Source: an uncultured Solirubrobacterales bacterium | Lineage (GTDB): Bacteria; Actinomycetota; Thermoleophilia; Solirubrobacterales; 70-9 | DNA: 64,000 bases | Assembly: GCA_963822295.1 (NCBI GenBank) | Contig: CAWGHD010000001.1 | Location: 4,577-68,576 of the forward strand | Direction of reading: 5' to 3' | Shown here: positions 1 to 30,790 of the stretch, one piece after another | Layout of the letters: the number at the start of each line of letters is the position of its first letter | Numbering within the stretch: position 1 is the first letter of the stretch | The notes under the pieces: model-generated | Database searches by the model: none | Seen by the model: only the letters and a program-made list of their open reading frames with translations | What the model was told of the DNA's origin: nothing | Made by a program: the position numbers and the translations under genes

Positions 1-543
1 TCGCCGCCTCCCAGAACGGCATCTTCATGACCGACGACGGGCGCGCCTTCTTCTCCACAGCCGATGCGCTGGTCCCGCGCGACGCCAACGGCATCGTCGA
101 CATCTACGAGTATGTCGAGGGCCGCGCACAGCTGATCAGCACCGGCACCGGCAACGACGCCGGCGAAGCGATTCGCCCGATCGGCTTGGTCGGGGTCTCG
201 GCCGACGGCACCAACGCTTTCTTCTCCACTTACCAGACCTTGGTGGGGCAGGACGAAAACGGCCCCTTCTACAAGCTTTACGTCGCCCGTACCAACGGCG
301 GCTTCCCGTTCAACAAACCTCCTGCTCCCTGTGCGGCCGCCGATGAGTGCCACGGGCCCGGCGCTGCCCCACCGGCGATGCCACAGGTCGGCTCGGGGGC
401 GATTGTCGGCGGCGGCAACGCGACTGTCGTGCGCAAGAAGCGAAAGCGAGCTCGCAGCGCAACTCACCGAGCGCCGACGCGATGCCAGGAAGCGCCGCGC
501 CAAGGAAAGGGCTCGGGCGAAGGCAGGAAGGTCGAAGAGATGA
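1..543 (+). CDS. 3' end of a large secreted beta-propeller (PD40/TolB-like repeat) protein, paralog of the C-terminus of 3351..8779 (5'-partial; one apparent +1 disruption near 420-440)
   Basis: Frame-3 translation 'DGRAFFSTADALVPRDANGIVDIYEY..DGTNAFFSTYQTLVGQDENGPFYKLYVARTNGGFPFNKPPAPCAAADECHGPG' parallels 'DGKDAFFFTREVLVGEDKNGQAMKVYDAREGGGFFVIPPPPPCAASDECHGPS' of the 3351..8779 protein. The basic tail '..RRAKERARAKAGRSKR*' is in frame 1 and stops at 541-543, overlapping the next ATG (ATGA). Confidence 0.55.
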
Positions 544-3354
544 GGTCGGCGGCGTGTAGGCAGACTGGTTCTTGGGGCGCTCGGCATGTGCGCTGCGGCC
601 TGCCTTCTCCTCGGCGGCTCGGCGCCGAGAGGGCCGAAGCAAAATCGACCGTCTTCACCTTCACCAACACCCCGTCGGGCACCCAGGCGGGGTCGCATCC
701 CAACGTCCTCACGAGCACAGAGCTGGGCAATCGCTTTAACCAAGGGCCGATGCCGGCCTGCGAATGCAACGACCCCAAAGACGTCACCATTCACGCCCCC
801 GCTGGGCTTGTCGCCAACCCCCACGTGGTCTCCGAGTGCACGACGGCTGAGCTCTCGACTTTTTCCTGCCCGCCTGATGCCCAGGCCGGGTTTGTGGTGC
901 TGCGTTTCTTTAGCTGGGGCGTGATCCCGCTTTACCGCACCGTGCCCCAGGAGGGCCAGGCGGCCCTTTTCGTCTTCCTGCCACCAATTGGCATCGCGAT
1001 CCCCCAATACATTGCGATCAACGCCAGGACCGGCGGAGACTACGGGATCGACTTTACGGTCACTGGGCCTCACCCACACCCTGCCGCCGAGCTCCTTCGG
1101 CAACGTCTTCTGGGGGGTGCCGGGGGCCGAGGATCACGACGTCGTCCGCTTCGGCCCGGCGGGAGCAGCTTCTCAACTGCAACACCAACCCGATCGAGTC
1201 GCTGTTTGTCGACGTGATTCCCGAGGACTGCAGCGTGGTCAACGCCAGTGGCTCCCAGAGCCCCAAGCAACCCGCACTCCTCCTCCCTGCCCGTCGCCCC
1301 TTTCACCCAGGCTCCGACCACCTGCGTCGGCCCACTCACCTCGAGCGTCGAAACCCTCGCCTACGACGGCGAGACCGACAGCGCCTCGGCCCCCTGGCCC
1401 GAAACCACGGGCTGCGACAAACTGAGCTTCGACCCGAGCCTGTCCGCGAACCCGACGACGACGCAGACCGACACCGCCTCGGGGTTGGCCGTCAACCTCA
1501 AAGTCCCCCAGTACCAGGACCCGGAGACCCCACTCTCCTCGGCGATCAAAGCGACCACGGTCACCCTGCCGGAGGGCTTCTCGATCAACCCCAACGCCGC
1601 CGACGGCAAGGTCGCCTGCACCGAGCAGCAGGCGGGCTTCGGCATCAGAGGCCCCATCGGGCTGCCCGGAGTTCTCAAAGATCGGCACCACCACCGTCGA
1701 CTCCTCAGCCCTCCCGGCCCCCATCAACGGCTACATCTACCTCGGCGAGCCCAAACCGGGAGACCGCTACCGGATCTTCCTCACCGCCGAGGGCTTCGGC
1801 ACCAACGTCAAGCTCTCCGGCATCGGTAAGGCCAGACCCGAAAACCGGCCAGATCGTCACCGCCTTCGAATCGCTGCCCCAGGCCCCCTTCCAGGAGTTC
1901 GACCTGCACTTCTTCGGCTCCGAGCGCGGACTTGCTCGCGACGCCCGAGCGCTGCGGCACCTATCCGGTCAAAACGCACCTTCAAGCCGTGGGCCGCAGA
2001 GCTCTCCGATCAGACCTCCACGCAGTTCTTCACGCTGGACTCCGGACCCGGAGGGCAAGCCCTGCCCACAACGGCCCACGTCCCTTCGCCCCCTCCCTGC
2101 AGGCCGGAGTCGCCGACAACACGGCCGGGACCCACTCGCCCTTCGTGCTGCGCTTCGACAGGACAGACGGCGATCAGAACCTGACCGGCGCCACCGTCAA
2201 GGCACCGCCGGGATTCGCCGCGACCCTCAAGGGCATCCCCTACTGCCCGGAGGCGGCGATCGCCCAGCTCGCCTCCGCCACCTACACCGGCCTCGCAGAG
2301 CAGGCCTCGCCCTCCTGTCCGGCCGCCAGCCAGATCGGCAGCGCCGTCGCCGCGGCCGGAGCGGGAAGCAGACCGATCCACGTCTACGGCCAGGTCTACC
2401 TCGCCGGCCCCTACAAAGGCTCCCCTTTGAGCCTGGTGGTCGTGATCCCGGCCGTCTCCGGTCCCTATGACCTCGGAGTCGTCGCGGTGCGAGCCGCGAT
2501 CGACCTCGATCCCCAAAGCGCCCAGGTAAGCGCCACCTCCGATCCCCTGCCCCAGATCCTCGAGGGAGTCCCACTGCGAACCAGGATGGTCCAGATCGAC
2601 CTCGACCGCCCCGGCTTCGCACTGAACCCGACCAACTGCGATCCCTTCGCAGTCGATGCGCTCCTGCTCGCGGACGAAGGCGCGAGCTCAAACCAAAGCG
2701 CCCACTTCCAGGTCGCCAACTGCGCCGACATGCCCTTCGCGCCGAAGCTCTCCCTGGCGCTGCAAGGGATCGACCAAGCGCACCGGCAACCCGGCCCTGC
2801 GGGCGACTCTGAGGACCGAGCCCGGCGAAGCCAACATCGCCCGCACCGCGGTGACGATGCCGGCCACCCTGCTGCTCGACAACGGCCACATCGGCAACGT
2901 CTGCACCAGGCCCCAGTTCGCAGCCAACGCCTGCCCGGCCGGATCGATCATCGGCACCGCCACCGCGACCACGCCGCTGCTCGATCGCCCCTGCTAAGCG
3001 GCACCGGTCCTCCTCAGGTCCTCATCGAACAAGCTCCCCGACCTCGTCGCAGACCTCGAGGGGCAGTTCGAGATCGAGCTCGTCGGCAAGATCGACTCCC
3101 CCAAAGGCCAGGGACTTCGCACCACCTTCGAGACGATCCCCGACGCCCCGGTCTCGAGCTTCACCTTGAGTCTCTCCGGAGCCTCCAAGGGGCTGCTGAC
3201 CAACTCCAAGGATCTCTGTAAAGCCCCCCAGAAGGCGAAGCTACAGATGACCGCACAAAATGGCCGCTCCTTCAACCGCAAGGTCAAGCTGCAGAGTGCC
3301 TGCAAGGCCCGCAAGAAGCAAAAGCGCGCCAAGCGAGGGGCGCTGCGGCGATGA
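540..3354 (+). CDS. secreted four-module Cys-pair repeat protein, paralog 1 (~935 aa if repaired). The frame is broken about 12 times as sequenced, so an automated pipeline would call it a pseudogene.
   Basis: ORF fragments 27..1217, 988..1425, 1214..2470, 1248..1829, 1932..3221, 2656..2997 and 3166..3354 chain into one protein collinear with 8776..11535. Examples: 'FWGVPGAEDHD' vs 'FWGMPGHEDND'; 'LSANPTTTQTDTASGLAVNLKVPQ' vs 'LSANLTSKETDSASGLDLNFRVPQ'; 'SKDLCKAP' vs 'TKDLCKGP'. ATG 540 overlaps the upstream stop (ATGA); stop at 3352-3354. Confidence 0.6.
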
Positions 3355-6300
3355 GGGCCTCCATCAAGACAGCGAGCCTCGCCCTGGCCTGCGCGGCTGC
3401 CTCGCTTGCGATCGGCGCGGGCGTCGCCCAGGCGGAGATCAGCTACCAGTCGAGCATCGGCGAATCAGGCGCCGGGGCGGGCAAACTCTCAAACCCGGCC
3501 GGCCTCGCCGTCAACACGACCACCGGCGACCTCTACGTGGCCGATCGCGGCAACAACCGGATCTCCCAGTTCAGCTCCGCGGGAGCTTTCATTCGCGCCT
3601 TCGGGTACAACGTCGTCGCCTCCGGCGAAGACGACAAACCCTTCGCCGACGAGGTCTCTGAAGTGCGGATCAGGGCGACCTCGGGTTCCTTCGCTCTGAC
3701 CTTCAAAGGCCAGAGCACCGCCCAGCTTGACTTCGACGCCTCCGCCGCTGAAGTCGAAGCGGCCCTCAACGGGCTCTCGACGATCTCAGAAGGCGGGGGA
3801 TCGGTCACCGTCTCCGGCGGTCCCGGCGACGTGAGCGGGGCCGATCCCTACGTCGTCACCTTCAGCGGTGGGCCATTGGCGAAAACCAACCTCGAGTTGG
3901 GGATCGATGCGAGTGGGCTCGGGATTCCCTGCGGGGACCGAGCTGAGCTGCCAGGGGGGCCCCAGCGACGCCGGCGCCTTCGCCTACCAGTGGCTGGCCA
4001 ATGGAGAGTCGGTCCCCGGCGCGACATCGCCGACCTTCACCCCTGGTGTCGGTGAGCAAGGCAAGGCAATCCAGTGCCGAGTGGCTGCGAGCTTCAGCTC
4101 AGTCAAAACCCTGGCGACCTCCCGTCCCTACTTTCTCGCCTCTCCGGCGCCCGCCACCCTTCCTCCGCTGGGTCCGACGTCCCTGGATGCCCCGGAAGGC
4201 AGTGCGGTGCTCGAAAGTGCCGGCGGCGTGCCGCTCACCTGCAACGCCGGCACTTGGACCCGGGGCCCGGAAACCTTCACCTACCGCTGGTATCGCAATG
4301 GAGTCGAAGTCGGGACGCCGACCATCACTGCGGCAACGTCGAGCCAATACGTGCTTACCCAGGGAGATTTGGCGACCCGTGCCGTCTTCCAGTGCTCGGT
4401 CACGGGCAACAACGCCGGCGGCTCGAGTATCGCGATCAGCAAATTCAACCCGACCGACCCCAAACCGATTCAGCCCGAGGCAAAAAACGCGACAGTGAGC
4501 ACTTCGCTCGCTCTCTCGAGCGCCTCCAGCGTGCTGACTCGCACCAACGGCGGCGCGGTCTTTGAGGTCTGCAAAGCCAGCCCGCCCTCAAACGACGTCT
4601 GCAAGGTTGGGATCGCGGGCGACGGGGTCGGCCAGTTCAATGCTCCGCGCAGCATCGCGATCGACAACTCACCGAGCGGGTCCGGTGCGGTTTACGTGAT
4701 GGACGACGGTAATCCACGGGTGCAGAAGTTCAGCGCCCTGGGGGCTCCGATCTCGATGCTCGGCGGTGGGGTCAATCAGACCACCGATGGCGACCTCTGC
4801 ACTATTGCCTCCGGCGATGCCTGCGGTGGGGGAGTGGTGGACGAAAGCGGGGCCGTGGGGGCATTCGGCGGCTCGCCCGGTACTTCCGCTGACTTCACCG
4901 AACTCGGCAACGAGCTGGCTGTGGACGCCGTCGGCAATCTCTATGTGGGCGATGCGCGCGCCGATTTGATCCAGCCGCGGATCCAGAAGTTCGATTCTGC
5001 TGGTGTCTTCCTGTCGCAGGCAAGGATGCCGTATGTGTTTGGCAACCCCTCTCAGCCGGTAAAGCCGGTGTCGGTTGCAGCCGACTCCACCCAGCGAGCC
5101 TTCGCGGCGACCCGCGGCGACGATGGGGGGATCGAGAAGTTCTCCACGGGGGAATTCAGCCCTCTGGGCCAAGGAGCGATCAGGGCGGGCAACTTCTTCC
5201 ACCAAGACGGCGATCCCGTTCAGCTGGCGCTTGACCCTCGCAACGACCGCCTCCTGGTTTCTGATCCAAACAAATCCGCGGCGCTTTCGCTCTGCGGCGG
5301 CCCGGGAGTTTCTGCTCTGGCCATTGCCGAGTACGACCCACAGTTGCACCGCATCGACTGCAGCATTCCGACCGGCCCCGGCCTGCTCACCCAGGTAACC
5401 GGCATGGCGGTCTCCAAAACGGGCACCCTCTACGCCTCGGTCGGCTCGGCCAACACGGTCAAGGTCTTCAAACTCCCGGTCTCGACCGCTCCGCAGCTGA
5501 CCAGCCCTTCGGTCACCGAGATCACAACCGAGACGGCGGTGGTCCACGCCCAGATCAACCCCGGCTTCGAGGACACCACCTACAAAGTCGAATACGGCCT
5601 CGCCAACTGCGCGACCAACCCCTGCGAAACGGCGGCTGGTCCCGACACCCTCTACGGCCTCAAATTCACCGACGGCGCCACCGCGATCAGCGGTCTGGAG
5701 CCCAACACCACCTACCGCTACCGGGTGATCGCCGAAAACAAACTCGGCAAAGCGACCGGACCCAACCGCTCCTTCCGCACCTTCCCCCTGGTCGACCTGG
5801 TCAACGACCCCTGCGCCAATGCCTTGGCCCGCAAGCAGACCAAGACGGTCGGCCTTTTGGACTGTCGCGCCTATGAGCTTGCCTCGGCGGCCTTCTCGGG
5901 CGGCTATGACGTCGTCTCTGACCTGGTCCCAGGCCAAAGCCCCTTCGAGGGCTACCCCGACGCAGAGGACAAGCTCCTCTACGGCGTAAAGGACGGTGGC
6001 ATCCCGGGAACCGGCAACCCGACCAACAGGGGCATCGACCCCTACGTTGCGAGCAGGGACGAGGACGGCACCTGGTCGACCACCTACGTCGGCATCCCCG
6101 CCGACAACCCGTTCGCTACAGGGCCCTTCTCCTCGACCCTGGCCGGCGCAGACAACGGACTGGATACCTTCGCCTTCTCAGGACCGGAGATCTGCGATCC
6201 CTGCTTTGCGGACGGATCCACCAACGTCCCCCTGCGGCTCCCCGACGGGGAGATCGTCAAGGGGATGGCGGGATCGCTCAATCCAGCAGCAGACTCCGCG

Positions 6301-8779
6301 GGAGGGATCGCAAAACCGCTCTCGGCAGACGGCTCCCACTTCCTCTTCAGCTCAGAGCTCCCATTTGAGGGCTCCCCGGTCTCAACCGGCGAAGTGATGA
6401 TCTATGACCGCGATCTGAAAGCCGGAACCACCCAGGTCGTCTCGACGCTGCCGAGCGGAGAAGCGATCCCCGGAGGAGTGCCCGGCTCAGAGGATGTCGC
6501 AGCCCTCGACATCTCCAAAGACGGCTCCAGGGTCCTGATCGGGCAGAGGGTCGCAACGGATGCAAAGGGCAACGCCCTCTGGCACCTCTACCTGCACCTC
6601 GGCACCTCGCCCAACAGCGTCGATCTGAGCGAAGGGACGACCTCGGGCGTCTACTTCAACGGGATGACCCAGGACGGCTCCAAGGTCTTCATCACGAGCA
6701 AAGACAAACTGCTGGGCGAAGACACAGACGAAAGCGCCGACATCTATAGAGCAGACGTCGACTCCGGCGGAGCACTCGGCCTCTCGCTCGTCTCGGTCAA
6801 ATCGACGGGAGCGGTCTCCAACTCAAACGCCTGCACCCCCGCCGGGGAACCGGCCAGCTGGAACTCCGCATCGGGCGACGGCAAATGCAATGCCCTGGCC
6901 TTCGCCGGCGGTGCGGGACTCGCCGCCGAGAGTGGTGCCTTCTACTTCCTCAGCCCCGAGCGCCTAGAGGGGACCAAAGGAACTCTCAACCAGGCCAACC
7001 TCTACCTGATCGCTCCCGGTGCCGCCCCCCGCTTCGTGGCGATGATCGACACCTCGGTCGGCAAGCCCCCGGCCTCGCCTCCCGAGCATCCTCTGATCGA
7101 CTCCGAATTCGGCGATGTGAGCTTCGAAGCCGTGCAGGCGCTCAGCGTCGATCAATCCAACGGCGATCTCTACGCGCTCGATCCCGGCGCCGGCGAGCTG
7201 CATCGCTTCGACTCCGCCGGCAGCCCTGAGAACTTCAGCGCCGGACCGGACGCCGGGACCAACACCCTGACGGGCCTCGCCCTGGGCAGCCCCTCCGTCG
7301 CCCAGGTCGCGATCGACAACTCCGCGAGCGCTCTCAGCGGTGACTTCTACGTCGCCAGTGAAGGCGGCGTCGACGTCTACGCCCCCAGCGGCGAGAAACT
7401 GGGCACGCTCGACGGCTCCGCCACCAACAAAGGCTCCTTCGGGGCGTCCTGCGGCGTCGCCGTGGACAAATCCAACGGCGCGCTCTACGTCGGTGACGCC
7501 GGTGGCAACCTCTGGCGCTACCAGCCCGAGCAGCCCGGTCGCCCCGATGATGACGCCGACTACACCGTCAAAGGGATCGCCACCACGGGGATGCAGCCCT
7601 GCGCGGTGGCGGCGGACTCAGCCGGCAAGGTCTATGCATCGCAGGTCTTCGGCGGCCCGGTGAAGCGGTTCGCGGCCGCGAGCTTCTCCTCCGGTAGTCC
7701 GACTCAATCGGCCGGGATCGAGATCGCCTCCGCCGCCCGCGCCCTAGCCGTCGACCCCGCCACCAACCACCTCTACGTCGATGAGGGCGACAGGATCTCG
7801 GTCTTCGACTCGGCGGGCAACCCGCTGGAGACGATCGGCCAGGGCAAACTCTCCTGCGGCTTCCTCGGCTCAAGAGGCGTCGCCGTCAACTCCACCACCC
7901 ACCACGTCTACGCCTCCTGCTTCGCGCCCTCGACGATCAAGGAGTTCGGCTACGAGGTGCCGCCATATACCCCCGTGGACAACCCGGCGATCCTCAACGC
8001 CACAAAGCAGGTCGGAGACCCACACCTACGGCGACTTCCAGGTAACCCCCGACGGTGCCTATGCGGCCTTCGCGACGATCATGCCGCTGAAAGCCGGCTA
8101 CGACAACGCCTCCCGCTATGAGCTCTACCGCTACGAGCCCACAGGCGGCGAAGAAGAAACGGGAGAGCTGATCTGCGCCTCCTGCAGCCCGACCGAATCT
8201 CAAGCCCAGAGCGACTCCGTCCTTCCCCCCAACGGATTGGGCCTGCTCGAAGACGGCAGGGTCTTCTTCAACACCGGTGAGCAGCTGACCCTCAGAGACA
8301 CCAACGGCAAGCTCGACGCCTACCAGTTCTCCCCGCAGGGAGACCCAGAAGTGCCGGGGGCCTGCAAGATCGAAGGCGGCTGCCAGCAGCTGATCTCGAC
8401 CGGCAACTCCGCCTTCCCCTCCGGAATGCTCGGAGCAAGCAGGGACGGCAAAGACGCCTTCTTCTTCACCAGAGAGGTCCTGGTCGGGGAAGACAAAAAC
8501 GGCCAGGCGATGAAGGTCTATGACGCCCGCGAGGGCGGAGGCTTCTTCGTGATCCCACCACCGCCCCCCTGCGCGGCATCGGATGAGTGCCACGGACCGA
8601 GCTCCCAGGCAGCTCCTCCGCCCCCGATCGGCTCCTTCAAGGGAAGCGGCGGCCAGCACACCGATGAAGCAAAGCCGGCCAAGTGCCGCAAAGGCAAGGT
8701 CCGCCGCCGCGGCAAGTGCGTCCCCAAGCCCAAGGCCAACCGCAACCGCAAAGCATCGAAGCGGGGGAGGGGCCGATGA
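3351..8779 (+). CDS. giant secreted NHL-repeat / beta-propeller / FN3-like exoprotein (~1809 aa; two apparent +1 disruptions near 3930 and 8013)
   Basis: Signal peptide 'MRASIKTASLALACAAASLAIGAGVAQA'. NHL-type repeats ('LSNPAGLAVNTTTGDLYVADRGNNRISQFS', 'AVYVMDDGNPRVQKFS', 'RALAVDPATNHLYVDEGDRISVFD'). Tandem Ig-like repeats 'YQWLANGESVPGATSPTFTP' / 'YRWYRNGVEVGTPTITAATSSQYVLT'. FN3-like 'LEPNTTYRYRVIAENKLG'. PD40-like 'DGSKVFITSKDKLLGEDTDESADIYRADV'. ORFs 3351..4055, 3868..8121 and 7781..8779 chain in order. Confidence 0.7.
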
Positions 8780-11535
8780 GCTCCCTCCATCAGCGAAGCC
8801 CCAGGTTTCTCCTCTGCGCCCTCACGGCAGCCCTCCTGGCGCTCGCCCTCTCCTCGAGCGCCCAGGCCAAAATCACCATCTCCTCGCTGACCACCACCGC
8901 CTCCGAAAACCAAGCCGGCGGCCACCCCGACCTCACCACCTCCTTTGAGCTGGCAAACCCAGGCGCACCGGAGGCGGCAAAAGACGTCATCTTCGAAGCC
9001 CCCGAGGGCATCTTCGGCAACCCCAACGCCCTGACCCGCTGCACGGCGTCTGACTTCGCCCTGCAGCAGTGCCCGGTCAACTCCCAGGCGGGACTGGTGA
9101 CGATCACCGCCAAGCAGGGCGCCGACCCCAACGTCTTGCTGGGAACCGCCCCCCTCTTTGACATGGAGCCCTCCGAGGGGGAGACGGCGAGGTTCAACCT
9201 CATCGTCCCGACATTGAACATCCCGATCGCGATCCCGGTCGCGGTCAGAAGCGCCGATGACTACGGACTTCGCTTCACGCGTCTCTGAAATCTCCCAGCT
9301 GACCCCGCTCTCAGAAGTCGACATGACCTTCTGGGGGATGCCCGGCCACGAAGACAACGATCCCTCCCGTTTCCCCAAAGGATCCCCAGGTGCCCCAGCC
9401 GGCTGCCCATCCCAGGCCGATGCCTCCTGCATCTCTGCGCCCTCATCGGTCTCGATCTCCGTCAAGCCCCTGATCGACTACCCGACCACCTGCAACGGCG
9501 ACCCCTTGATCACAAAGCTCTCGGTGCGCTCCTACCAGGACCCCAAAGCCCTCTCCACCGAAGAGGCCTCCTACCCCCCGGTCGACGGTTGTGAGAAAGG
9601 GACCTTCAACCCGGTCCTCTCCGCCAACCTGACGAGTAAAGAGACAGACTCCGCATCTGGCCTGGACCTCAACTTCAGGGTCCCCCAGACGCTCGGCAAA
9701 ACCCCCTCGCCCTCCCAGGCCAAGTCGGTCACCGTCGCCTTCCCACCCGGATTGACGATCAACCCCGACGCCGCCGACGGCCAGAGCGACTGCAAAGACT
9801 CAGAGGCCAACTTCGACTCAGAGGCCCCTGCCTCTTGCCCCGACAACGCCAAGATCGGCACCGTCTCGAGGTCGCCACCCCGGCCCTCGACGGCCCCCTC
9901 AAAGGCTCGATCTACATCGGTCGAGCCCAAACCAGGCGATCAGTACCGCCTGTTCATGGTCGTCTCTGGCTTCGGGATCAACGCCAAGCTGATCGGCTCC
10001 TTCAAACCCGATCCGACAACAGGGCAGCCTGACCGCTTCCTTCTCCGACCTCCCCCAGGTCCCCTTCGAGGAATTCGACATCCACCTCTTCGCCTCTGAC
10101 AGAGGCCTGATGGCGACCCCGACCGCCTGCACCCTCTACCCGGTCAAAGCGACCTTCGAGCCCCACAACGCCACCCTCGCCCCCCAGACCTCCCAGCAGT
10201 TCTTCAGCCTGGACTCCGGGCCCGGGGCAGCCCAGTGCCCGGGCCAGGTCAGGCCCTTCAGCCCAAGGCTCGTGGCGGGAACCTCAAACCCCCTCGCCGG
10301 AGCCTTCTCGAGCTTCCACCTCAAGCTCGACAGAGACGACGGCGACCAGTTCCTCGACGACCTCGGCTTCAAGATGCCCCCCGGCTTCACCGGATCGCTT
10401 AAAGGCATCACCTACTGCCCGGAGGCCCAGATCGCCGCGGCGGCCCAGAACCTCGGCAAGACAGAGCGGGGCAGCCCCTCCTGCCCCGGTAGCTCCTTCG
10501 TCGGCACCACCAACGTCGCCGCCGGACCGGGCAGCCATCCCTTCAACGCGGTCGGGCGGATGTACTTGGCGGGGCCGCTGCAAGGAGCCCCCCTCTCCCT
10601 GGCGGCGATCACCCCGGCCCTGGCCGGCCCCTATGACTACGGCGTCGTCGTCGTGCGGGTCGCCCTGCACGTCGATCCCCTCACCGCCCAGGTCTCAGCG
10701 GACTCAGAGCCGATGCCCCAGATCATCGGCGGCATCCCGATCAGGATGCGATCGATCCAGGTCAACATCGACAAGCCCAACTTCACGATCAACCCGACCA
10801 ACTGCTCGCAACTTCACGGTCGACTCCAAAGGCGTCGGAGACCAGGGCACCGCCACCCTCTTCTCCTCACCCTTCCACGCCGTCAACTGCAGATCGCTTC
10901 CCTTCGCCCCGAAGATGACGATCACCCAGCTCGGCAAGCGCAAGGACACCAAACGAAACAGAAACCCGGTCCTTCGCTTCGAGCTGAAAACAAGGCCAGG
11001 AGACGCCAACCTCAAAGACCTCTCGGTCACCCTCCCCAAGGCCTTCGCGATCGACCAGCGCCACCTCGGCAACCTCTGCTCCAAAGCCCAGCTTGCGTCT
11101 GAGCGCTGCAAAGGACGCCAGCCGATCGGATCGGCCTGGGTCAAGACCCCGCTCCTAGACGAGCCCCTGCAGGGACCCGCCTACGCGGTATCGGGCTTCG
11201 GCATCCTCCCCAGGGTCGCCTTCATCCTCGAGGGCCAGGTGACGATCATCCCCCAGGCGGAATCGGAGTCGGTCAAGCTCGGCAAACGCGAGGGCTTCTT
11301 GAAGACCACCGTCGGGGTCATCCCCGACGCCCCGATCGGGCACTTCAGACTCGACCTGCTCGGAGGCAAGCAGGGCTACCTGATCAACACCAAGGACCTC
11401 TGCAAGGGCCCGGTCATCGCCACCGTTGACTACGGGGCCCAGAGCGGCAAGAAGCTCAGGCAGAGGGTCCGGGCCAAGACGGCCTGCCCGGGGGCCCGCA
11501 AGGGCAAGCGGGGCGCCCAGCGCTCGCGGCGTTAA
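8776..11535 (+). CDS. secreted four-module Cys-pair repeat protein, paralog 2 (~920 aa if repaired; 5 apparent disruptions near 9280, 9866, 9922, 10028, 10809)
   Basis: ATG 8776 overlaps the upstream stop (ATGA). Signal peptide 'MSSLHQRSPRFLLCALTAALLALALSSSAQA'. ORFs 8683..9288, 9257..10099, 9835..10032, 10110..11102 and 10633..11535 chain into one protein collinear with 540..3354. Four repeats of a '..P.G(F/L)...C-x(8-20)-C...(I/V)G' module. K/R-rich end 'ARKGKRGAQRSRR*'. Confidence 0.65.
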
Positions 11536-11676
11536 GGAAAACCAAAGACACCTTGAGCATCCGGAGCGCTACAGTTCCCGCCCGGGTTTCGATAAACGAA
11601 GCGAATCTTTGAGCGCGCAGGGGGGTTCCTTTAACCGGAGCCGCGCACTCAAAACGCAAAGCGGAGGAGAGAGCAG

Positions 11677-12306
11677 ATGCATCTGGGGAATCGCAGTATC
11701 GGCAGGCCCTCACCGGCGATGATCGTCGCGATCATCGCCCTGATCGCCTCTCTTTCAGGCTCCGCCTACGCGGCGCTTGGCAAGAACTCGGTCGGCTCGC
11801 GCCAGCTCAAGTCGGCGGCCGTGACCACCGGCAAGATCGCCAACAACGCCGTCAACGGCAAAAAAGTCGCCAACGGCTCCCTCTCGGGCGAGGACATCAA
11901 CCTCGCCGCGCTCGGCACCGTCCCGGCCGCCACCACCGCGACCTCGGCCGGCAACGCCGACACCGTCGCCGGGCACGCCGCCGCCTGCCCACCGGCGACG
12001 ACCCTGATCCGCGGCACCTGCTTTGACTCCTCCGCGGGCCCGGTCGTTACCTCCGTCGAAGCCGCGGCGGACGCCTGCGCGGCCAAGGGCGGGCGCCTGC
12101 CAGACCCCTTGGAGCTCTACGCCACCCGCTCGATCCTCAACCTCGGCACCGGCACCGGCACCGACAACCAGTTCACCAGCGCCTACTACGCCAACACCAA
12201 CGGCGGCGACTACAACACGATCGTCGTCAACGGCACCGGCGCCCTGATCGAGCAGGAAATCACCTCCGACGCCCGCTACACCTGCGCCTACGCGCTGGTG
12301 CGCTAG
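11677..12306 (+). CDS. hypothetical N-terminally anchored or secreted protein (209 aa)
   Basis: Intact ORF with GGAGGAG 7 nt upstream of the ATG. Hydrophobic N-terminus 'AMIVAIIALIASLSGSAYAA'. Short 'VTTGKIANNAVNGKKVANGSLSGEDI' repeats followed by a Cys-containing C-terminal domain. No family recognised. Confidence 0.6.
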   Translation: MHLGNRSIGRPSPAMIVAIIALIASLSGSAYAALGKNSVGSRQLKSAAVTTGKIANNAVNGKKVANGSLSGEDINLAALGTVPAATTATSAGNADTVAGHAAACPPATTLIRGTCFDSSAGPVVTSVEAAADACAAKGGRLPDPLELYATRSILNLGTGTGTDNQFTSAYYANTNGGDYNTIVVNGTGALIEQEITSDARYTCAYALVR

Positions 12307-12316
12307 GGACCCGGCG

Positions 12317-13102
12317 ATGAGGATCGGCTTCTCAAAGACCGCCCTGGCGGCCCTCGGCATCCTCGCCGTGGCGGGGGCGGGCCTGGCCTCCGCGGAGGTC
12401 GGCCAAAAAGACAACATCCGGGTCACCTTCTCGGGCTCGATCGCCCCGGTCAAGCTGCCGCGCACCGGCACCGCCCCGATCGGGGTGCAGCTGGGCGGCA
12501 AGATCAAGACCACCGACCCGGCCAACCCGCCGATCCTCGACCGCATCATCCTCGAGATCAACCGCAACGGCCACATCCAGACCAAGGGCCTCGGGACCTG
12601 CTCGCTGGCAAAGCTGCGGTCGGTCTCCGCCGCGGCGGCCAAACGCAGCTGCGCCGAGGCCCTGATCGGCCGCGGCAACGTCACCTCCCGGGTCTCCTTC
12701 CCCGGCCAGGGCGCCTTCGCCGTCAACGGCACCCTGCTGGCCTTCAACGGCCGCCACAAGGGCGGGGAGGCGATCTTTGCCCAGGTCACCAACGGAGCGC
12801 CGCTGGTCACCACCTACGTGATCGTCTTCGAAGTCAAGAAGACCGGCGGCACCTTCGGTGCCTCCCTCAACGGCACCCTGCCCCCGATCGCCTCCGAATA
12901 CGGCTACATCTCCGCCTTCAACATGAACCTGCGCCGCACCTACACCTACAAGGGCAAGAAGATGAGCTACGCCTCTTCCGGCTGCCCGGCGGCGAAAGGA
13001 TTCCCCGGCGCCACCTTCCCGCTGGCAAGGGCGAGCTATGAGTTCGAGAGCGGGGTCAAGATAACGAGCACCTTGAATCGCGAATGCAAGGTAAGGGGGT
13101 AG
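12317..13102 (+). CDS. secreted single-module protein related to the four-module partners (261 aa)
   Basis: Signal peptide 'MRIGFSKTALAALGILAVAGAGLASA'. 'ILEINRNGHIQTKGLGTCSLAKLRSVSAAAAKRSCAEALIGRGNV' matches the Cys-pair module of 8776..11535. Paralog of 13108..13863. Confidence 0.65.
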   Translation: MRIGFSKTALAALGILAVAGAGLASAEVGQKDNIRVTFSGSIAPVKLPRTGTAPIGVQLGGKIKTTDPANPPILDRIILEINRNGHIQTKGLGTCSLAKLRSVSAAAAKRSCAEALIGRGNVTSRVSFPGQGAFAVNGTLLAFNGRHKGGEAIFAQVTNGAPLVTTYVIVFEVKKTGGTFGASLNGTLPPIASEYGYISAFNMNLRRTYTYKGKKMSYASSGCPAAKGFPGATFPLARASYEFESGVKITSTLNRECKVRG

Positions 13103-13107
13103 GGGAG

Positions 13108-13863
13108 ATGAGGAAGGCACTCGTATTGGTAGCAAGCCTGGCGCTGGTGGTGCCGGCGATCGCCCAGGCCGCCGGGCAGACGGTCAAGGCCGGCAACCTG
13201 GTGGTGAACATCGACGGCAAGATCACCCCCTCCAAGCTCTCCAAGACCAAGCCGGCGCCGATCGCCCTGGAAGTCAAAGGCTCCCTCGGCACCGCCGACG
13301 GCACCCACGTCCCCGCCCTCAAGGAACTGTTCCTGGAATTCGACAAAAACGGCCACCTCAACACCAAGGGCCTGGCCAGCTGCACGGTCGGCAAGCTGAA
13401 CTCGACCCTGACCTCCCAGGCCAAGCAGGTCTGCGGAGCGGCCCTGGTCGGCAGCGGTCGCGCCAGCGCCGAGATCGCCTTCCCAGAACAGCCCCCCTTC
13501 AGCGCCGGCGGGCCGCTTCTGATCTTCAACGGCTCCAAGGGCAACAAGCAGGAACTGATCATCCACGTCCACGCCTCGGTCCCGGCCCCGACCACCTTCG
13601 TCACCACCGCCAAGATCGGCAAGGGCAAGGGCCTCTACGGCACCTCGGCCAAGATCGCGGTGCCGACGATCACCTCCGGGCAGGGCTCCCTGATCGCCTT
13701 CAACGCGAAGATCTCCAAAACCTTCAAGGTCAAAGGTCAAAGCCAGGCGGTGCTGACCGCCACCTGCAAGACCGGCACCCTGCAGGCCTCGGGCGACTTC
13801 ACCTTCACCGACGGCACCAAGATGTCTGGCAAAGTAACCCGGCCCTGCACACCGAGCAAATGA
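13108..13863 (+). CDS. secreted single-module protein, paralog of 12317..13102 (251 aa from ATG 13108; ATG 13084 also possible)
   Basis: 'MRKALVLVASLALVVPAIAQA' signal peptide with GGGGAG just upstream. 'FLEFDKNGHLNTKGLASCTVGKLNSTLTSQAKQVCGAALVGSGRA' aligns residue-for-residue with the neighbouring gene. Confidence 0.65.
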   Translation: MRKALVLVASLALVVPAIAQAAGQTVKAGNLVVNIDGKITPSKLSKTKPAPIALEVKGSLGTADGTHVPALKELFLEFDKNGHLNTKGLASCTVGKLNSTLTSQAKQVCGAALVGSGRASAEIAFPEQPPFSAGGPLLIFNGSKGNKQELIIHVHASVPAPTTFVTTAKIGKGKGLYGTSAKIAVPTITSGQGSLIAFNAKISKTFKVKGQSQAVLTATCKTGTLQASGDFTFTDGTKMSGKVTRPCTPSK

Positions 13864-14351
13864 GGAGAGCCACCCCGATGAGAGCCCTCGCCGTCCTCGC
13901 CGCCACCGCGATCGCCGCCATGGCCATGGCCCCCGCGGCGCTGGCGATCGAGCGCCCCGAATACAAGGAAGCGGTCGAGCCGATCTGCCAGGCCAACACC
14001 AAAGCCAACGAACGCATCCTCAAGGGCGTGCGCAACTTGGTCAAAGACGGCAAGCTGGGCCCCGCCGCGACCAAGTTCTCAAAGGCCGGCGCCGCCTTAA
14101 AGAAAGCCCACACCCAGCTCACCGCGGTCGAAAAGCCCGCCGCCGACGTCGCCAAGCTCGACAAATGGCTGGGCTACGTAAAGACCGAGGCCGACCTCTT
14201 CAACCAGGTCGCCGCCAAGCTGCGCCAGAACAAGAAGGGCGCCGCCCAGACCCTGGTCAACAAGCTGACCACCAACGCCAACCAGGCAAACGCCCAGGTG
14301 CTGGCCTTCGGCTTCCGCTACTGCCGCTTCGAACCCTCCAAATTCACCTAG
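13860..14351 (+). CDS. small secreted hypothetical protein (163 aa; alternative start 13878)
   Basis: ATGA overlap with the upstream stop. Signal peptide 'MRALAVLAATAIAAMAMAPAALA'. Helical, Lys/Ala-rich mature part. No family recognised. Confidence 0.55.
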   Translation: MRRATPMRALAVLAATAIAAMAMAPAALAIERPEYKEAVEPICQANTKANERILKGVRNLVKDGKLGPAATKFSKAGAALKKAHTQLTAVEKPAADVAKLDKWLGYVKTEADLFNQVAAKLRQNKKGAAQTLVNKLTTNANQANAQVLAFGFRYCRFEPSKFT

Positions 14352-14364
14352 GGGCCAACGCGCC

Positions 14365-14893
14365 TTGCGCGCCAGCCTCATAGCCCTCGCCCTCACCGCC
14401 GCCCTGGCCCTCGCCGGCTGCGGCGGGGATGGCGATGGGGAGGACTCCACCTCCGTGGCACCGGCGGCTATCGCCGAAGCCGCCTCCCTCGCCGAACCGC
14501 CCCCCAAGGGCGCCTCCTTGCAGCTCAAAGAGCTCTACCGCCAGTTCCAGCCGCCAAAGCCAGACCCCGAGGTGGCAGGGGTCGGCCAAGGCGATCGAGA
14601 AGGGCGAAGCCACCTGCGAGGGCAAGACCCCGATCGAGATCCGCGAAGCCTTCATCGCCGAAGCCGACCTCAGCGAAGACCAGCAAGAGGCGGTATCGGA
14701 ACTGCCGCGCTTTGAAGCCAATCCCTCCCCGAGCTTCCCCGCCGGGCAGGTCGCCGCCCTCGTCTACCAGCGCAGCCTCCCCGGTGAGATCCTCCCCTCC
14801 TACGGCTTCCAGGGCTGCGTCTACGCGCTCTCGCTGGGGCTGAAGGCCGAGCTGGCGCCAAAGGCCGGCGCCAAGACCAAGGAAGGCAAATGA
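14365..14893 (+). CDS. putative lipoprotein (one apparent +1 disruption near 14580)
   Basis: Lipobox 'LALAGC' in 'MRASLIALALTAALALAGCGGDGDG'. ORF 14365..14715 continues in ORF 14429..14893 ('SAKAIEKGEATCEGKTPIEIREAFIAEADL..'), which keeps a coding-like composition. Confidence 0.55.
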
Positions 14894-15612
14894 AAAAGAC
14901 GATCGCGATAGCGCTGCTGCTGGGCCTGGCGATCGCCGGCGGCTGCGGCGGGGACTCCGGCTCAGACTCCTCGAGCACCGAGACCGCCACGACCGAGGCC
15001 ACCACAACCCAGGGCGGCAAGGACGAGGGCGCCGCCAAGGCCGCTGGCCCCGGCCAGGCCAAGGGCAACCAGGGTCCGCGAAGCAAGGCCAAGCGCAAGG
15101 TCGCCCAGCGCGAGGGCGCCTTGATCGAGGACACCGGAGGGGCCAAGACCCCCGCCGGAGCGGCCCCCGCCGAGCCCGAAGAGTTCATCGCCCCCAAGGG
15201 CGGCGATGACTCGATCCAGACCTACGGCGAGGCGGCCGATGGCACGGAAGAAGAAGAGATCATCGCCGCGATGCGCTCCTTCTTCACCGCGATGGCGACG
15301 CTCGATTACCCGGGCGTCTGCGCCGGCCTGACCGAGTCAAACCGCGAATCGCTGCTGCTCTACCTCAAAACCAAAGAGCAGCAGGGAAGCTGTGAGACGG
15401 TGCTCGAGGGGCTGCTGCTGGCCCAGGCCGCACCGGAAGCCCGCAAGGCCGCCAACGGCAGCGTCCTGGAAGCCCGCGTGCAGGACGGCAACGCCTTCGT
15501 CCTCTTTACCCCCGAAGGCGGCGAGCCCTCCTACTTCGTGATGAAAGCCGAAGATGATGGCTGGCGCTCGACCAGCCTCGCCGCTGGGACGCCGTTTGAT
15601 CCGGTGGGGTGA
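14890..15612 (+). CDS. putative lipoprotein (240 aa)
   Basis: ATGA overlap with the upstream stop. 'MKKTIAIALLLGLAIAGGCGGDSGS' (lipobox-like IAGGC). Low-complexity linker, then a globular C-terminal domain. No family recognised. Confidence 0.6.
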   Translation: MKKTIAIALLLGLAIAGGCGGDSGSDSSSTETATTEATTTQGGKDEGAAKAAGPGQAKGNQGPRSKAKRKVAQREGALIEDTGGAKTPAGAAPAEPEEFIAPKGGDDSIQTYGEAADGTEEEEIIAAMRSFFTAMATLDYPGVCAGLTESNRESLLLYLKTKEQQGSCETVLEGLLLAQAAPEARKAANGSVLEARVQDGNAFVLFTPEGGEPSYFVMKAEDDGWRSTSLAAGTPFDPVG

Positions 15613-15657
15613 GGAAGCGGGCCTCGCCCACGTCCCGTCGCTAGAGTTGCTTTTCCC

Positions 15658-15730
<73 letters not shown>

Positions 15731-15782
15731 TCTGCGCGCCCTGCGAGCCCTCCGCCGCGCGCTGACGCTAGGCTCCCCGCCC

Positions 15783-16929
15783 GTGGACTTCTCTCTGACC
15801 GACGAGCAGCAGGACTTCGTCGCCGCGATCCGCGATTTCTGCGAGCGCGAGTGCGGGACCCAGGAGCAGCGCGAGAGGCTGACCGAGGGCTACACGAGCT
15901 CCACCACAACGACGCCCTCTACAAGCAGATGGCCGAGCTGGGCTGGCTCGGCGTCACGATTCCCGAGGAGTACGGCGGCTCGGGCGGCTCGATGCTCGAC
16001 GCCTGCCTCTTCATGGAGGAGATCCGCGCGGGGTCTGGCCCCGATCGGCGGCTACGCGACGACGCTGATCGTCGCCGGCGCCACCCAGCGCTTCGGCACC
16101 GACGAGCAGAAGCGGGAGATCCTCGGCGGGATCGCCGGTGGCGCGGTCGAGGCGATCGCGATGACCGAGCCCGAGGCCGGCTCCGACGTCGGCGCTCTCA
16201 CCACCTCGGCCGAGCGGGTCAACGGCGGCTTCGTCCTCAACGGGCAGAAGGTCTTCATCTCCAACGCCCACATCGCCGACCACATCCTCGTCGTCTGCCG
16301 TACGACCAAGGGCGAGTCCAAGCACGAGGGCCTCTCGATGATCTGGCTCCCCCGCGAGACGAAGGGGCTCGAGATCGTCCCGATCAAGACGATGGGCGGC
16401 GAAGAGACCAACCACCTCTACCTGACCGATGTCGAGGCTCCCGGCCGACGCCGTCCTCGGCGAGGTCGACCAGGCCTGGACCCAGCTGATGGCGGGGCTC
16501 AACGTCGAGCGGCTGATCCTCGCCGCGACGATGCTCGGCATCGCCCAGCGCGCCTTCGACGATGCCCTCGCCTACGTCAAGGAGCGCAAGCAGTTCGGCC
16601 GCCCGATCGGCTCCTTCCAGGCGCTCCAGCACCGGCTCGCCGACATGGCAACCGAAATCGAGGCCGCTCGCCTGATGACCCGCTGGGTGGCGACCCTGAC
16701 CGACGAGGACCCCGGCCGGATGCTGCCGCGCGAGGCATCGATGGTGAAGCTGCATGTGACCGAGGTCGCCAAACGCGTCGCGGTCGAGGGAATGCAGCTG
16801 ATGGGCGGCTACGGCTACTCCTCCGAGTACGACATGGAGCGCCTCGTCCGCGCGACGATGGTCTCGACGATCTACGGCGGCACCTCGGAGATCCAGCGCA
16901 CGATCATCGCCAAGACGCTCGGGCTCTGA
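15783..16929 (+). CDS. acyl-CoA dehydrogenase (3 apparent disruptions near 15893, 16026, 16438)
   Basis: 'MDFSLTDEQQDFVAAIRDFCEREC', 'LYKQMAELGWLGVTIPEEYGGSG', 'AMTEPEAGSDVGALTTSAERVNGGFVLNGQKVFISNA' and 'ERKQFGRPIGSFQALQHRLADMATEIEAARL..YGGTSEIQRTIIAKTLGL' are typical ACAD motifs. They are spread over ORFs 15783.., 15689.. and 16429..16929. Confidence 0.85.
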
Positions 16930-17004
16930 GTAGGAGAGAGGGGCGCTAGGCACCGCGTCGGACGGCACCGCGCCTCGGTGCCTCATAGCGCTATTCTTCG
17001 GTTC

Positions 17005-21026: not shown

Positions 21027-28640
<7,614 letters not shown>

Positions 28641-28717: not shown

Positions 28718-30037
28718 GTGGCCAGTTCGGAGAAGGTCTGCATCATCGGCGCCGGGTCCTCGGGGATCACCGCCTGCCAGGTCCTGAAGGCGCGCGGGGT
28801 CCCGTACGACTGCTTCGAGAAGGGGTCGATGGTCGGCGGCAACTGGCGCTATGAAAACGACAACGGGCAGTCGTCGGCCTACCGCTCGCTGCACATCAAC
28901 AGCGCCCGCAAGCTGATGTCCTACCGCGCCTTCCCGATGCCGGAGGACTATCCGGACTATCCGAGCCATTGGCAGGTGGCCAAGTACTTCGACGACTACG
29001 TCGAGCGCTTCGGGCTGCGCGAGGGGATCACCTTCAACGCCGAGGTGGTCTCCGCCGAGCCCGCCGACGGGGAGTGGGACGTCACGGTCGAGGACGCCGA
29101 GGGGCGCCGCACAGAGCGCTACCGGGCTGTGCTCGTCTGCAACGGCCACCACTGGAACCCGCGCTGGCCCGAACCGGCCTTCGCCGGCGCCGAGGACTTC
29201 GCCGGCGAGCAGATCCACGTCCATCATTACCGCGAGCCGGACGTCCTCGAGGGCAGGCGGGTGCTCGTCCTCGGGATCGGCAATTCCGCCGTCGATCTCG
29301 CCGTCGAGGCCTCGCGGATCGCCGACAAGACCTTCCTCGCGATGCGCCGCGGGGCCTACGTCATCCCCAAGTTCCTCGGCGGCAAGCCGGTCGACGAAGC
29401 ATCGCCCCCCATGACGACCTACCTGCCGATGTCGGTGCGGCGCCTCTTCATGGGCAGGCTGCTGAAGCTGACCGTGGGGGAGATGACCGACTACGGCCTG
29501 CCCAAGCCCGACCACAAGCTGCTCGAGGCGCACCCGACGGTCTCCTCGGAGCTGCTGCCGCGGGTCGGGCACGGCGACATCACGATCAAGCCCAACATCG
29601 AGGCCTTCACGGGCGGCAACACGGTGCGCTTCGCCGACGGCAGCGAGGAGGAGGCCGACCTCGTCGTCTACTGCACCGGCTACCGGATCAGCTTCCCCTT
29701 CCTCGACCCGTCGGTGTTCGAGTCCAGGGACAACCAGATGCCGCTATACCGGCGCGTCGTGGACGTCGATCACCCGGGCCTGCACTTCATCGGCTTCGTC
29801 CAGCCGCTGGGGCCGATCATGCCGATCGCCGAGGAACAGTCCGAATGGGTCGCCGACCTCCTGCGCGGCAGGGCGACGCTGCCCTCGAAGGACGAGATGC
29901 GCAAGGAGATCGCGGCGCACGAACGAGCGATGAAAAAGCGCTTCGTCGCCTCTAAGCGTCACACGATCGAGGTGGACTTCCACCCCTATCTGCGCGAGAT
30001 CCGGCGCGAGCGAAAGCGGGCCGCCCAGCCGGTCTGA
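28718..30037 (+). CDS. flavin-containing (FMO / Baeyer-Villiger type) monooxygenase (439 aa)
   Basis: GTG start. FAD site 'VCIIGAGSSGITA'. FMO motif 'FAGEQIHVHHY'. NADPH site 'VLVLGIGNSAVDLA'. 'DLVVYCTGYRISFPFL'. Confidence 0.8.
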   Translation: MASSEKVCIIGAGSSGITACQVLKARGVPYDCFEKGSMVGGNWRYENDNGQSSAYRSLHINSARKLMSYRAFPMPEDYPDYPSHWQVAKYFDDYVERFGLREGITFNAEVVSAEPADGEWDVTVEDAEGRRTERYRAVLVCNGHHWNPRWPEPAFAGAEDFAGEQIHVHHYREPDVLEGRRVLVLGIGNSAVDLAVEASRIADKTFLAMRRGAYVIPKFLGGKPVDEASPPMTTYLPMSVRRLFMGRLLKLTVGEMTDYGLPKPDHKLLEAHPTVSSELLPRVGHGDITIKPNIEAFTGGNTVRFADGSEEEADLVVYCTGYRISFPFLDPSVFESRDNQMPLYRRVVDVDHPGLHFIGFVQPLGPIMPIAEEQSEWVADLLRGRATLPSKDEMRKEIAAHERAMKKRFVASKRHTIEVDFHPYLREIRRERKRAAQPV

Positions 30038-30263
30038 CGGGGGCTCGGGTCCTCGGTCTCGCAGCGCCACCGAGCGGTGAGCTGTGCGGGCCTCGCGGCC
30101 TGGGCCTGCCCGGGCTCCAGCGTTTGGGGCTGCCGCCGCCGTCCTCGCTCGGCTCATAGGCGGTGGACGCCGGGCGGCTCGCCCACCAGATCAGCCAGAG
30201 GGCGAAGAGCACCGGTGCCTTGAGCACGACCAGCAGGAAGAAGATCGGCCAGAAGCCCTCCAC
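29952..30263 (-). CDS. possible small membrane protein (GTG 30263; the 3' part overlaps the FMO gene end and may be spurious)
   Basis: 'VEGFWPIFFLLVVLKAPVLFALWLIWWASRP' is a clean hydrophobic helix 35 nt downstream of the HAD-like gene. The remaining Pro/Arg/Gly-rich part looks like off-frame sequence. Confidence 0.25.
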   Translation of the reverse strand: MEGFWPIFFLLVVLKAPVLFALWLIWWASRPASTAYEPSEDGGGSPKRWSPGRPRPRGPHSSPLGGAARPRTRAPVRPAGRPAFARAGSRADRGGSPPRSCDA

Positions 30264-30298
30264 GCGGTTCAGTCTAGACAGGCCGGACGCGGCAGCGC

Positions 30299-30790
30299 TC
30301 AGGCGCTCTCGCCGGCCAGGCTCCTGGCCCAGGCGAGCAGGGCTTCGGTGTGGGCCTCCTCGAGGCCCAGCGCCGCCTCGGTCGGGACCAGCAGCGTCGG
30401 CTCGGGCCGGCCCTGCGCCCACTCGTAACAGCTCTGGTCGAAGCTGTCGTCGATCCAGGCCAGCGGCCGGCCCTTGCCGTAGTCGTCGAGCGGCCCCAGC
30501 TTCCAGTGGGCCGAGCCGAAGCGGGCGGCGCCGTCGAAGCTCAGGAAGGGCAGCTCGGGCAGGCCGAGGATGTTCGGCAGGTAGTCGTTGGCTTTCTCCT
30601 CCCAGCCGGTCGCCCAGACCAGGTCGAAGTGCTCGGTCAGCCGCATCAGCCGCTCACCCGCCCCGAGGGAGATGCAGTGGACCATTCCGTCGACGAGCTG
30701 GAACTGGGCCATCGAGCTGGGTGGCGGCTCGTCGAAGCCGAAGAGGCTGATCACCCCGTCGACGTCGACGGCGAGCAGCGGGCGGCTCAT
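30299..30790 (-). CDS. HAD-superfamily hydrolase-like protein (163 aa from ATG 30790)
   Basis: 'MSRPLLAVDVDGVISLFGF' (HAD motif I, DxDG) and 'RPLAWIDDSFD' (acidic motif IV). Internal Met of ORF 30299..30982; starts 17 nt after the rpsG stop. Confidence 0.6.
   Translation of the reverse strand: MSRPLLAVDVDGVISLFGFDEPPPSSMAQFQLVDGMVHCISLGAGERLMRLTEHFDLVWATGWEEKANDYLPNILGLPELPFLSFDGAARFGSAHWKLGPLDDYGKGRPLAWIDDSFDQSCYEWAQGRPEPTLLVPTEAALGLEEAHTEALLAWARSLAGESA

Follow-up and report, generated by a model that had tools for sequence, protein, structure and literature searches.

The 64,000-nt stretch of DNA analysed here (hereafter the window), which belongs to an uncultured Solirubrobacterales bacterium, opens with a four-gene unit in which two large exported proteins (L) alternate with two partner proteins (P). 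Frameshift-aware alignment to the intact orthologues of a related locus on a soil-metagenome contig (L001), together with tblastn, places them within positions 1–11535 in the order L_A (3' end), P_A, L_B and P_B. Sequence comparison with related loci shows that L_A, P_A, L_B and P_B are four distinct, co-diverged subfamilies held in a fixed order, and the resulting unit is specific to Solirubrobacterales (Thermoleophilia). Its products can be regarded as exported multidomain surface proteins, for which we do not claim a new mechanism, and their most likely function, which we put forward tentatively and at slightly less than an even chance, would be that of a non-covalently held cell-surface binding complex of L and P, retained on the wall through the tails of both proteins. 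The Solirubrobacterales are widespread in soil, almost wholly uncultured and among the most abundant uncultured soil actinobacterial orders. To our knowledge, nothing is known of their cell surface, and literature searches for surface proteins, S-layers and NHL proteins of Solirubrobacterales or Thermoleophilia returned nothing relevant. Knowing what L_A-P_A-L_B-P_B does would show how these organisms bind or sense their surroundings. The window itself holds one noisy copy of the unit.

Relatives were collected by scanning one genome per GTDB species, which returned at least 570 confirmed stretches, and the best 80 loci, from 33 assemblies, were inspected; open reading frames (ORFs) were called in all related loci and then clustered. 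Counts refer to 81 distinct related loci, L002 being a duplicate of L001 and a few noisy loci having no usable ORF calls. All but one of the best 80 loci come from metagenome-assembled genomes (MAGs) labelled Solirubrobacterales or Paraconexibacteraceae, the remaining one being labelled only “uncultured Actinomycetes”. The arrangement L-P-L-P was called in 53 of the 81 loci, and the first P is of the A type and the second of the B type in every one of these 53 units; two further windows counted as B-then-A turned out to be the tails of L-P-L-P-L-P loci with a divergent third P. Moreover, 129 of 140 P genes have L directly upstream, and 88 of 94 L genes have P directly downstream, so that the adjacency of the two families, which a preliminary description of the window had pointed out from the letters alone, is near-obligate.

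The two types have also diverged together. Among the C-terminal cores of L_A and L_B, median identity is 47% for cores of one type and 37% for cores of different types, and in 120 of 122 cases the nearest neighbour belongs to the same type. Within the window, protein identity is 45% between P_A and P_B and 47% between the tail of L_A and L_B; judging from these values, the duplication that gave rise to the A and B pairs is ancient. The preliminary description had seen here a gene pair duplicated in tandem as a unit: the homology between the pairs stands, but what is observed is a fixed unit of four subfamilies rather than a simple tandem duplication.

All three internal junctions of the unit are ATGA stop/start overlaps (at 540, 3351 and 8776, exactly as first reported), each start being preceded by a purine-rich Shine–Dalgarno-like motif. 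On the contigs with the closest partner homologues, L001 and L003, where the same large-partner-large-partner order is found with intact ORFs, the junctions are overlaps of 1, 4 or 8 nt, or a gap of 2 nt. Across relatives, tight overlaps are retained both from L to P (n = 136: 4-nt overlap in 54, 8-nt in 29, 1-nt in 6) and from P to L (n = 64: 4-nt overlap in 24, 1-nt in 6, 3-nt gap in 12). These junctions support co-transcription and probably coupled translation. A scan of positions 1–16000 for promoters and terminators found nothing promoter-like, and terminator-like sites were fewer than in shuffled sequences.

The unit is present in many copies per genome, with up to 8 loci, 17 P ORFs and 18 L genes in one MAG, together more than 120 kb, a lower bound taken among the best 80 loci. 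It occupies much of the coding capacity and, as a genomic pattern, is strong and defines the lineage, an important order of uncultured soil bacteria. In one genome (OY970304), three ~14-kb copies of the locus, extending over L-P-L-P and two small downstream genes, c4 and c2 (L024, L025, L027), are 82–95% identical, so that c4 and c2 were copied along with the unit. Their identity is mosaic (90–95% over P_B-c4-c2 and 82–87% over L_A-P_A-L_B), which points to segmental duplication accompanied by gene conversion or by unequal divergence.

The P proteins are not recognised by any of the curated resources searched. We found no match for P in Pfam (even at E ≤ 1), NCBIfam or PHROGs, and the family profile returned no PDB sequence at E ≤ 1, while every source name among the homologues is “hypothetical protein”; the partner family, which had not been recognised at first reading, therefore remains without a counterpart in these collections. 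The family is very large: at 50% identity, it comprises 6,957 cluster representatives with E ≤ 1e-3 and 2,508 with E ≤ 1e-30. Each P consists of four homologous modules of ~200 aa (hhalign between modules: E 1e-6 to 1e-15) and closes with a ...GQNG... stretch, a Cys and a basic tail. A 60-sequence family alignment has 101 invariant columns, 16 of them Cys, which suggests that P is oxidised, disulfide-rich and extracellular. In the window, P_A carries AGSHPN at 687–704 and the tail ...CKARKKQKRAKRGALRR, whereas the equivalent features of P_B are AGGHPD at 8914–8931 and the tail ...CPGARKGKRGAQRSRR, which ends in a TAA stop; both proteins have the four predicted beta-sandwich modules.

AlphaFold2 (AF2) models the P orthologue P0001 as an all-beta protein (predicted local distance difference test, pLDDT, 88.6; predicted template modelling score, pTM, 0.77), and module 4 of P_B, read directly from window positions 10870–11532, with a pLDDT of 90.3 and a pTM of 0.85. 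Compared with the PDB using Foldseek, the full-length model yields only generic multi-immunoglobulin (Ig) chains, integrin legs and RTX-adhesin repeats, with template modelling (TM) scores of 0.11–0.17, and the single module has no match at E ≤ 1e-3 (best query TM-score 0.38). Against viral predicted structures (BFVD), the module gives one uninformative match (TM 0.41). Modelling a single module, as the preliminary description had advised, thus led to a confident structure with no convincing fold match. Judged from profiles and predicted structure, the P module is an undescribed domain family; its definition as a domain would give an annotation to thousands of proteins now called “hypothetical”, giants of 3,000–7,000 aa among them.

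Such giant relatives (P0241–P0250, P0391 and P0392) are found in Actinomycetota MAGs; they are 2,000–7,167 aa long and hold 5–17 stretches matching P modules, and none of them has an LPXTG tail. One giant-protein cluster is misnamed “Cu/Ag efflux protein CusF” at source. There are also single-chain proteins in which NHL/FN3-type heads are fused straight to a P region (e.g., P0252), with neither tail nor signal peptide between the two. Together, giants and fusions suggest a role for the P module as a head-bearing element of a stalk or scaffold. In L066 (6317–12724), P0255 and P0264, the L and P frames are likewise fused in one ORF, and some of these ORFs keep the basic tail of L in mid-chain. 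Some fused ORFs may well be genuine (P0252), while those with an L tail in mid-chain may be frameshift artefacts of long-read MAGs.

In contrast to P, the L proteins include a recognisable domain. The N-terminal head of L_B (window 3351–3950) has a genuine NHL repeat (PF01436: 35.1 bits, E 1.1e-8, gathering threshold 20; 42.5 bits in the L001 orthologue), and the sequence matches of L_B in the PDB are limited to NHL domains (TRIM71, Brat). Pfam further detects an FN3-like domain and a second NHL/SGL-like propeller in L_B, in which Ig-like and PD40-like repeats are visible by eye, whereas domain scans of L proteins in general return FN3-like domains and weak SGL/DUF6923 propeller signals. As for the NHL/PEP-CTERM protein ScyF (NF035926), membership was rejected: the score is 62.5 bits against an equivalog cut-off of 350, and L has no hydrophobic C-terminal sorting helix. 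By these searches, the NHL head is the only part of the unit that belongs to a known family.

When 149 other L proteins are mapped onto L001 L_B, the first ~700 aa (NHL, Ig-like domains, NHL propeller) are common to only 3–20% of them and an internal propeller (residues ~1250–1550) to ~35%, whereas residues ~700–1250 and ~1550–1750 are common to 64–91%. Mapping of the sequences therefore shows L as a conserved C-terminal core with variable N-terminal NHL/Ig/propeller heads. The core comprises an FN3-like domain, a PD40-like propeller, a C-x5-CH motif, a P/G/S spacer and a polybasic K/R/H tail. The motif takes the form C-x-A-[SA]-[DE]-E-C-H near the C-terminus in 129 of 153 L ORFs; it is followed by the P/G/S-rich spacer, often by a C-x9-12-C basic loop, and then by the K/R/H-rich tail. 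In the window, the L_A part shows PD40/TolB-like repeats (by eye), CAAADECHG at 330–356 and a K/R-rich tail, and L_B ends with CAASDECHG at 8570–8596, a C-x11-C basic hairpin and a K/R tail. All four proteins of the window are basic-tailed, as had been stated, and such tails are enriched family-wide: in the related loci, a K/R content of at least 32% over the last 25 residues is seen in 86% of L and 58% of P, compared with 6% for the remaining ORFs.

On these grounds, we propose that L and P would be co-produced and would then form hetero-oligomers outside the cell, P serving as an invariant scaffold or stalk and L as a variable ligand-binding (or catalytic) head. The polybasic tails would bind anionic wall polymers and so hold the complex on the wall non-covalently, and the many paralogous units would represent a repertoire of binding specificities, for adhesion or for substrate capture in soil.

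Of the systems with which the unit was compared, it would work most like a Gram-positive fibrillar adhesin (sortase-anchored MSCRAMMs, pilins such as SpaD) that has been split into separately encoded stalk and head. Like these adhesins, L and P are exported, have tandem Ig-like beta-sandwich modules and variable heads, and P modules also form very long arrays in the giant relatives; SpaD and RTX-adhesin repeats are even among the weak Foldseek matches of P. However, the L head and the P stalk are mostly separate polypeptides from coupled genes, the P module matches no solved structure convincingly, and sortase substrates they are not: neither an LPx[TA]G motif nor a transmembrane-like stretch or hydrophobic helix occurs in any of 153 L and 143 P tails, and among 83 loci neither a sortase-like gene nor any enzyme cluster recurs. 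Integrin alpha-chain legs, the top Foldseek matches of full-length P, are similarly strings of Ig-like beta-sandwiches, but at TM-scores of 0.11–0.17 and 7–10% identity this is a generic beta-sandwich likeness, not homology. With NHL-repeat six-bladed propeller proteins (PF01436; e.g., ScyF), the unit shares the NHL repeat of the L_B N-terminus, which in L is only a variable accessory head.

Two mycobacterial systems, given here as analogies, share organisational features with the unit. Like PE/PPE and EsxA/EsxB, L and P are two different proteins encoded side by side, as a pair expanded genome-wide in an actinobacterial lineage, but there is no relation in sequence or fold, the signals are of the Sec type and not of type VII, L and P are ten times larger, and their heterodimer is putative. 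Like the Lys-rich tail of HBHA, the C-termini of L and P are K/R(/H)-rich, unstructured and extracytoplasmic, with no hydrophobic anchor; unlike it, they have no sequence relation to HBHA, and the L tail comes after the conserved C-x5-CH and often a C-x9-12-C loop. Polymorphic toxins (Rhs/CDI-type) were rejected because the polarity is reversed, the C-terminus of L being conserved (67–91%) and its N-terminus variable (3–20%). A phage origin was discarded as well, no relatives being found on viral contigs (IMG/VR), and so was membership among phage tail fibres, since PHROGs holds nothing for P and only a weak repeat match for c4 (E 0.004).

Several points weigh against the proposed wall-held binding complex. 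Contact between L and P, surface location and the ligand of the tails all rest on inference, and signal peptides were called by eye alone: they are clear for L_B and P_B, as the preliminary description had it, whereas that of P_A becomes visible only once its frame is repaired. Overlapping stop and start codons are common in operons generally, so that those of the unit speak for co-expression, not for stoichiometry or a complex. Six-bladed NHL/SGL propellers are often enzymes, which makes a catalytic rather than adhesive role possible, and some L proteins have no NHL/SGL match at all. A third homologue search, started from a Paraconexibacteraceae copy, returned only “hypothetical proteins” from MAGs and metagenomes, with no cultured carrier, and we found neither expression data nor a paper on the unit. 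Finally, frame breaks in this copy are about ten times denser in P_A (~1 per 215–250 nt) than in L_B (1 per ~2.7 kb), a contrast that fits uneven assembly quality (polishing or coverage), as the same window has a broken rpoB and an intact rpoC.

A first alternative, which we regard as unlikely, is that the unit encodes a secreted enzyme machinery, in which the L propellers would act as lactonase- or lyase-like enzymes, with P as a carrier or substrate-binding subunit, and the units would together serve to degrade or scavenge a range of substrates in soil. A constant core that bears variable heads and the many paralogous units per genome would suit such a role, as would the NHL matches, the partial ScyF match and the weak SGL (gluconolactonase-like) matches of L. 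Yet all enzyme-family matches fall far under curated cut-offs (22 vs. 26.3 bits for SGL, and the ScyF score given above), several L proteins show neither an NHL nor an SGL match, no catalytic residues were identified, and no transporter or catabolic gene is consistently linked to the loci. A second alternative would be four abundant exported proteins expressed from one promoter and acting independently, with no hetero-oligomer: overlaps and fixed order can persist for regulatory reasons alone, and the interaction between L and P is putative. The near-obligate adjacency of L and P, the co-divergence of L_A/P_A and L_B/P_B, the natural single-chain fusions of a head with P and the joint duplication of whole units all argue against it, and we consider it distinctly unlikely.

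A more specific version of the wall-held complex can also be formulated, in which L_A, P_A, L_B and P_B would form an undescribed monoderm appendage, with a disulfide-rich, four-module P stalk built from a new beta-sandwich domain family, exchangeable L propeller heads docked onto it, the tails as sole wall anchor (no sortase, SLH domain or lipid), C-x5-CH as a metal, haem or inter-subunit cross-link site, and at least 8 units as a combinatorial repertoire for adhesion or substrate capture; in such detail, the proposal is doubtful and we give it little credence. Improbable, too, is a lattice-forming envelope layer (S-layer-like) made of L and P. The proteins are indeed exported, large, non-enzymatic in appearance and basic-tailed, and their four genes probably co-expressed. 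However, Pfam and NCBIfam scans of P and L gave neither an SLH domain nor any other known family or anchoring domain of S-layers, S-layers normally depend on one or two highly expressed genes, as opposed to at least 8 divergent four-gene loci with variable heads, and the searchable literature yielded no report of an S-layer in Thermoleophilia; no result here favours this reading in particular.

That the C-x5-CH motif binds haem or a metal, making L a redox-active or metal-binding exoprotein, is highly improbable. The conserved motif resembles the extended c-type haem motifs (CXnCH), but there are no cytochrome-maturation or redox genes within the loci, the two Cys may merely form a disulfide, and we know of no documented CX5CH haem site, which counts against haem.

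The sequence of the window is disturbed over the whole unit. As written, the plus-strand coding frame shifts repeatedly in 1–11535, with at least 18 breaks, so that the reading frames of the preliminary description do not exist in the raw sequence; its gene order and sizes agree, once repaired, with our alignment products of ~934, ~1808 and ~917 aa. Breaks were placed by a frameshift-aware dynamic program that aligns the intact L001 orthologues to the window, a segmentation based on G+C content at third codon positions having proved too crude for counting them. There are 11 in P_A, plus an in-frame stop at ~2995–2997 that we read as two more compensating indels, 2 in L_B (near 3927 and 8011) and 5 in P_B (~9277, 9870, 9922, 10028 and 10812). 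Nearly all consist of one extra base, and the breaks lie outside obvious homopolymer runs. In addition, the ATG at 540 shares its frame with the upstream reading frame, which runs stop-free to 1215, so the L_A stop at 541–543 requires one more 1-nt indel between ~470 and 541; this indel was not located, the L_A tail being of low complexity and the alignment showing no shift.

Could this copy, or at least P_A with its 11 to 13 breaks, be a decaying pseudogene cluster? This is the least probable of all the readings, for the repaired P_A and P_B retain 98 and 100 of the 101 invariant family columns, P_A is as similar to its L001 orthologue as L_B is (68% identity for both), all four genes are uninterrupted in L001 and L003, single extra bases are typical of read or assembly noise, and disruptions are not confined to the unit. 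Indeed, the essential rpoB is split over at least three frames (21283–22341, 22374–23465 and 23038–24591), and an acyl-CoA dehydrogenase gene over two (15689–16489 and 15783–16949), while rpoC (24591–28640), fusA (32628–34739) and tuf (34866–36050) are intact, which argues for indel noise that is window-wide and uneven. By this comparison, the frame breaks are assembly indel errors and the genes are functional in nature. The practical lesson for genome scanning is that raw ORF calls are untrustworthy in so noisy a window.

Table 1. Coordinates of the four-gene unit, its junctions and the small downstream genes in the window.
Feature	Position	Strand	Evidence
L_A, 3' end (last ~180 aa)	1..543	+	tblastn against L001 L_A C-terminus: 67% identity over 169 aa
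ATGA stop/start overlap L_A/P_A	540..543	+	sequence; orthologous L001 junction also ATGA
P_A, A-type partner, ~934 aa once repaired	540..3354	+	618/912 identical to L001 P_A; best match in A subfamily
ATGA stop/start overlap P_A/L_B	3351..3354	+	sequence
L_B, second large protein, ~1808 aa once repaired	3351..8779	+	1198/1767 residues identical to L001 L_B
ATGA stop/start overlap L_B/P_B	8776..8779	+	sequence; GGGGGAGGGG 5 nt upstream
P_B, B-type partner, ~917 aa once repaired	8776..11535	+	664/899 identical to orthologue P0001
c4, 209 aa, N-terminal hydrophobic anchor or signal, Cys-containing C-terminal domain	11677..12306	+	ORF clustering
c2 copy 1, 261-aa exported protein	12317..13102	+	ORF clustering; no Pfam or PDB match
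c2 copy 2, 259-aa exported paralogue	13084..13863	+	ORF clustering
c5, 163-aa exported protein, apparently helical (by eye)	13860..14351	+	in relatives, follows c2 or MMPL transporter
c12, ~154 aa, N-terminus probably frame-damaged	14429..14893	+	5 relatives, 42–62% identity
Putative lipoprotein, 240 aa, lipobox-like LAIAGGC (by eye)	14890..15612	+	after same gene set in L040, L055 and L080

The absence of any enzyme, secretion component or regulator inside the block, as first described, was confirmed. Its end at 11535 was not: the conserved block goes on to ~15612 with six small ORFs (from 11677). By eye, each of these has a signal peptide, an anchor or a lipobox-like sequence; none has a family match, and they belong to clusters recurring after P_B in many related loci (Table 1). 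In related loci, c4 directly follows P in 15 cases; neither Pfam nor the PDB has a match for it. Among the accessory families, c2 is the most frequent, with 51 ORFs in 37 related loci and in several kinds of neighbourhood. Visually, its pattern is similar to that of a single-module P relative, but hhalign gives no significant result (E 0.015–0.2, probability ≤3%). The neighbours that recur across the 83 loci are c2, c4, c5, c12, TetR, PucR-like and MMPL genes. The PucR-like regulator and the 400-aa gene found 3' of the unit in L001 and L003 have no counterpart in the window. In eight loci (L003, L005, L029, L037, L038, L039, L053 and L065), P_B is followed by c2, an MMPL transporter and c5, with a cis-prenyltransferase and a protein of DUF2600, the YtpB-type terpenoid synthase family, on the opposite strand; this may be an envelope-lipid export neighbourhood.

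Beyond the block, the window, of 66–77% G+C, covers the nusG-rplKAJL-rpoBC-fusA-tuf-S10/spc region. A tRNA-Thr (GGT) at 15658–15730, the sole Rfam/ARAGORN match in the 64 kb, lies between the exported-protein block and acyl-CoA dehydrogenase/nusG. Further on, a flavin-monooxygenase-like gene (28718–30037) stands between rpoC and the str operon, and the match to S12 (rpsL) is on the minus strand (ORF 31277–32470), opposite to fusA and tuf; 28718–32470 therefore shows either an unusual arrangement or a local misassembly. Finally, from ~54000 to 64000, G+C climbs from ~0.66–0.70 to 0.73–0.77 and the AT skew flips sign, so that this part, which encodes a GFO/IDH/MocA oxidoreductase and a type I phosphodiesterase among others, may be a segment of distinct composition.

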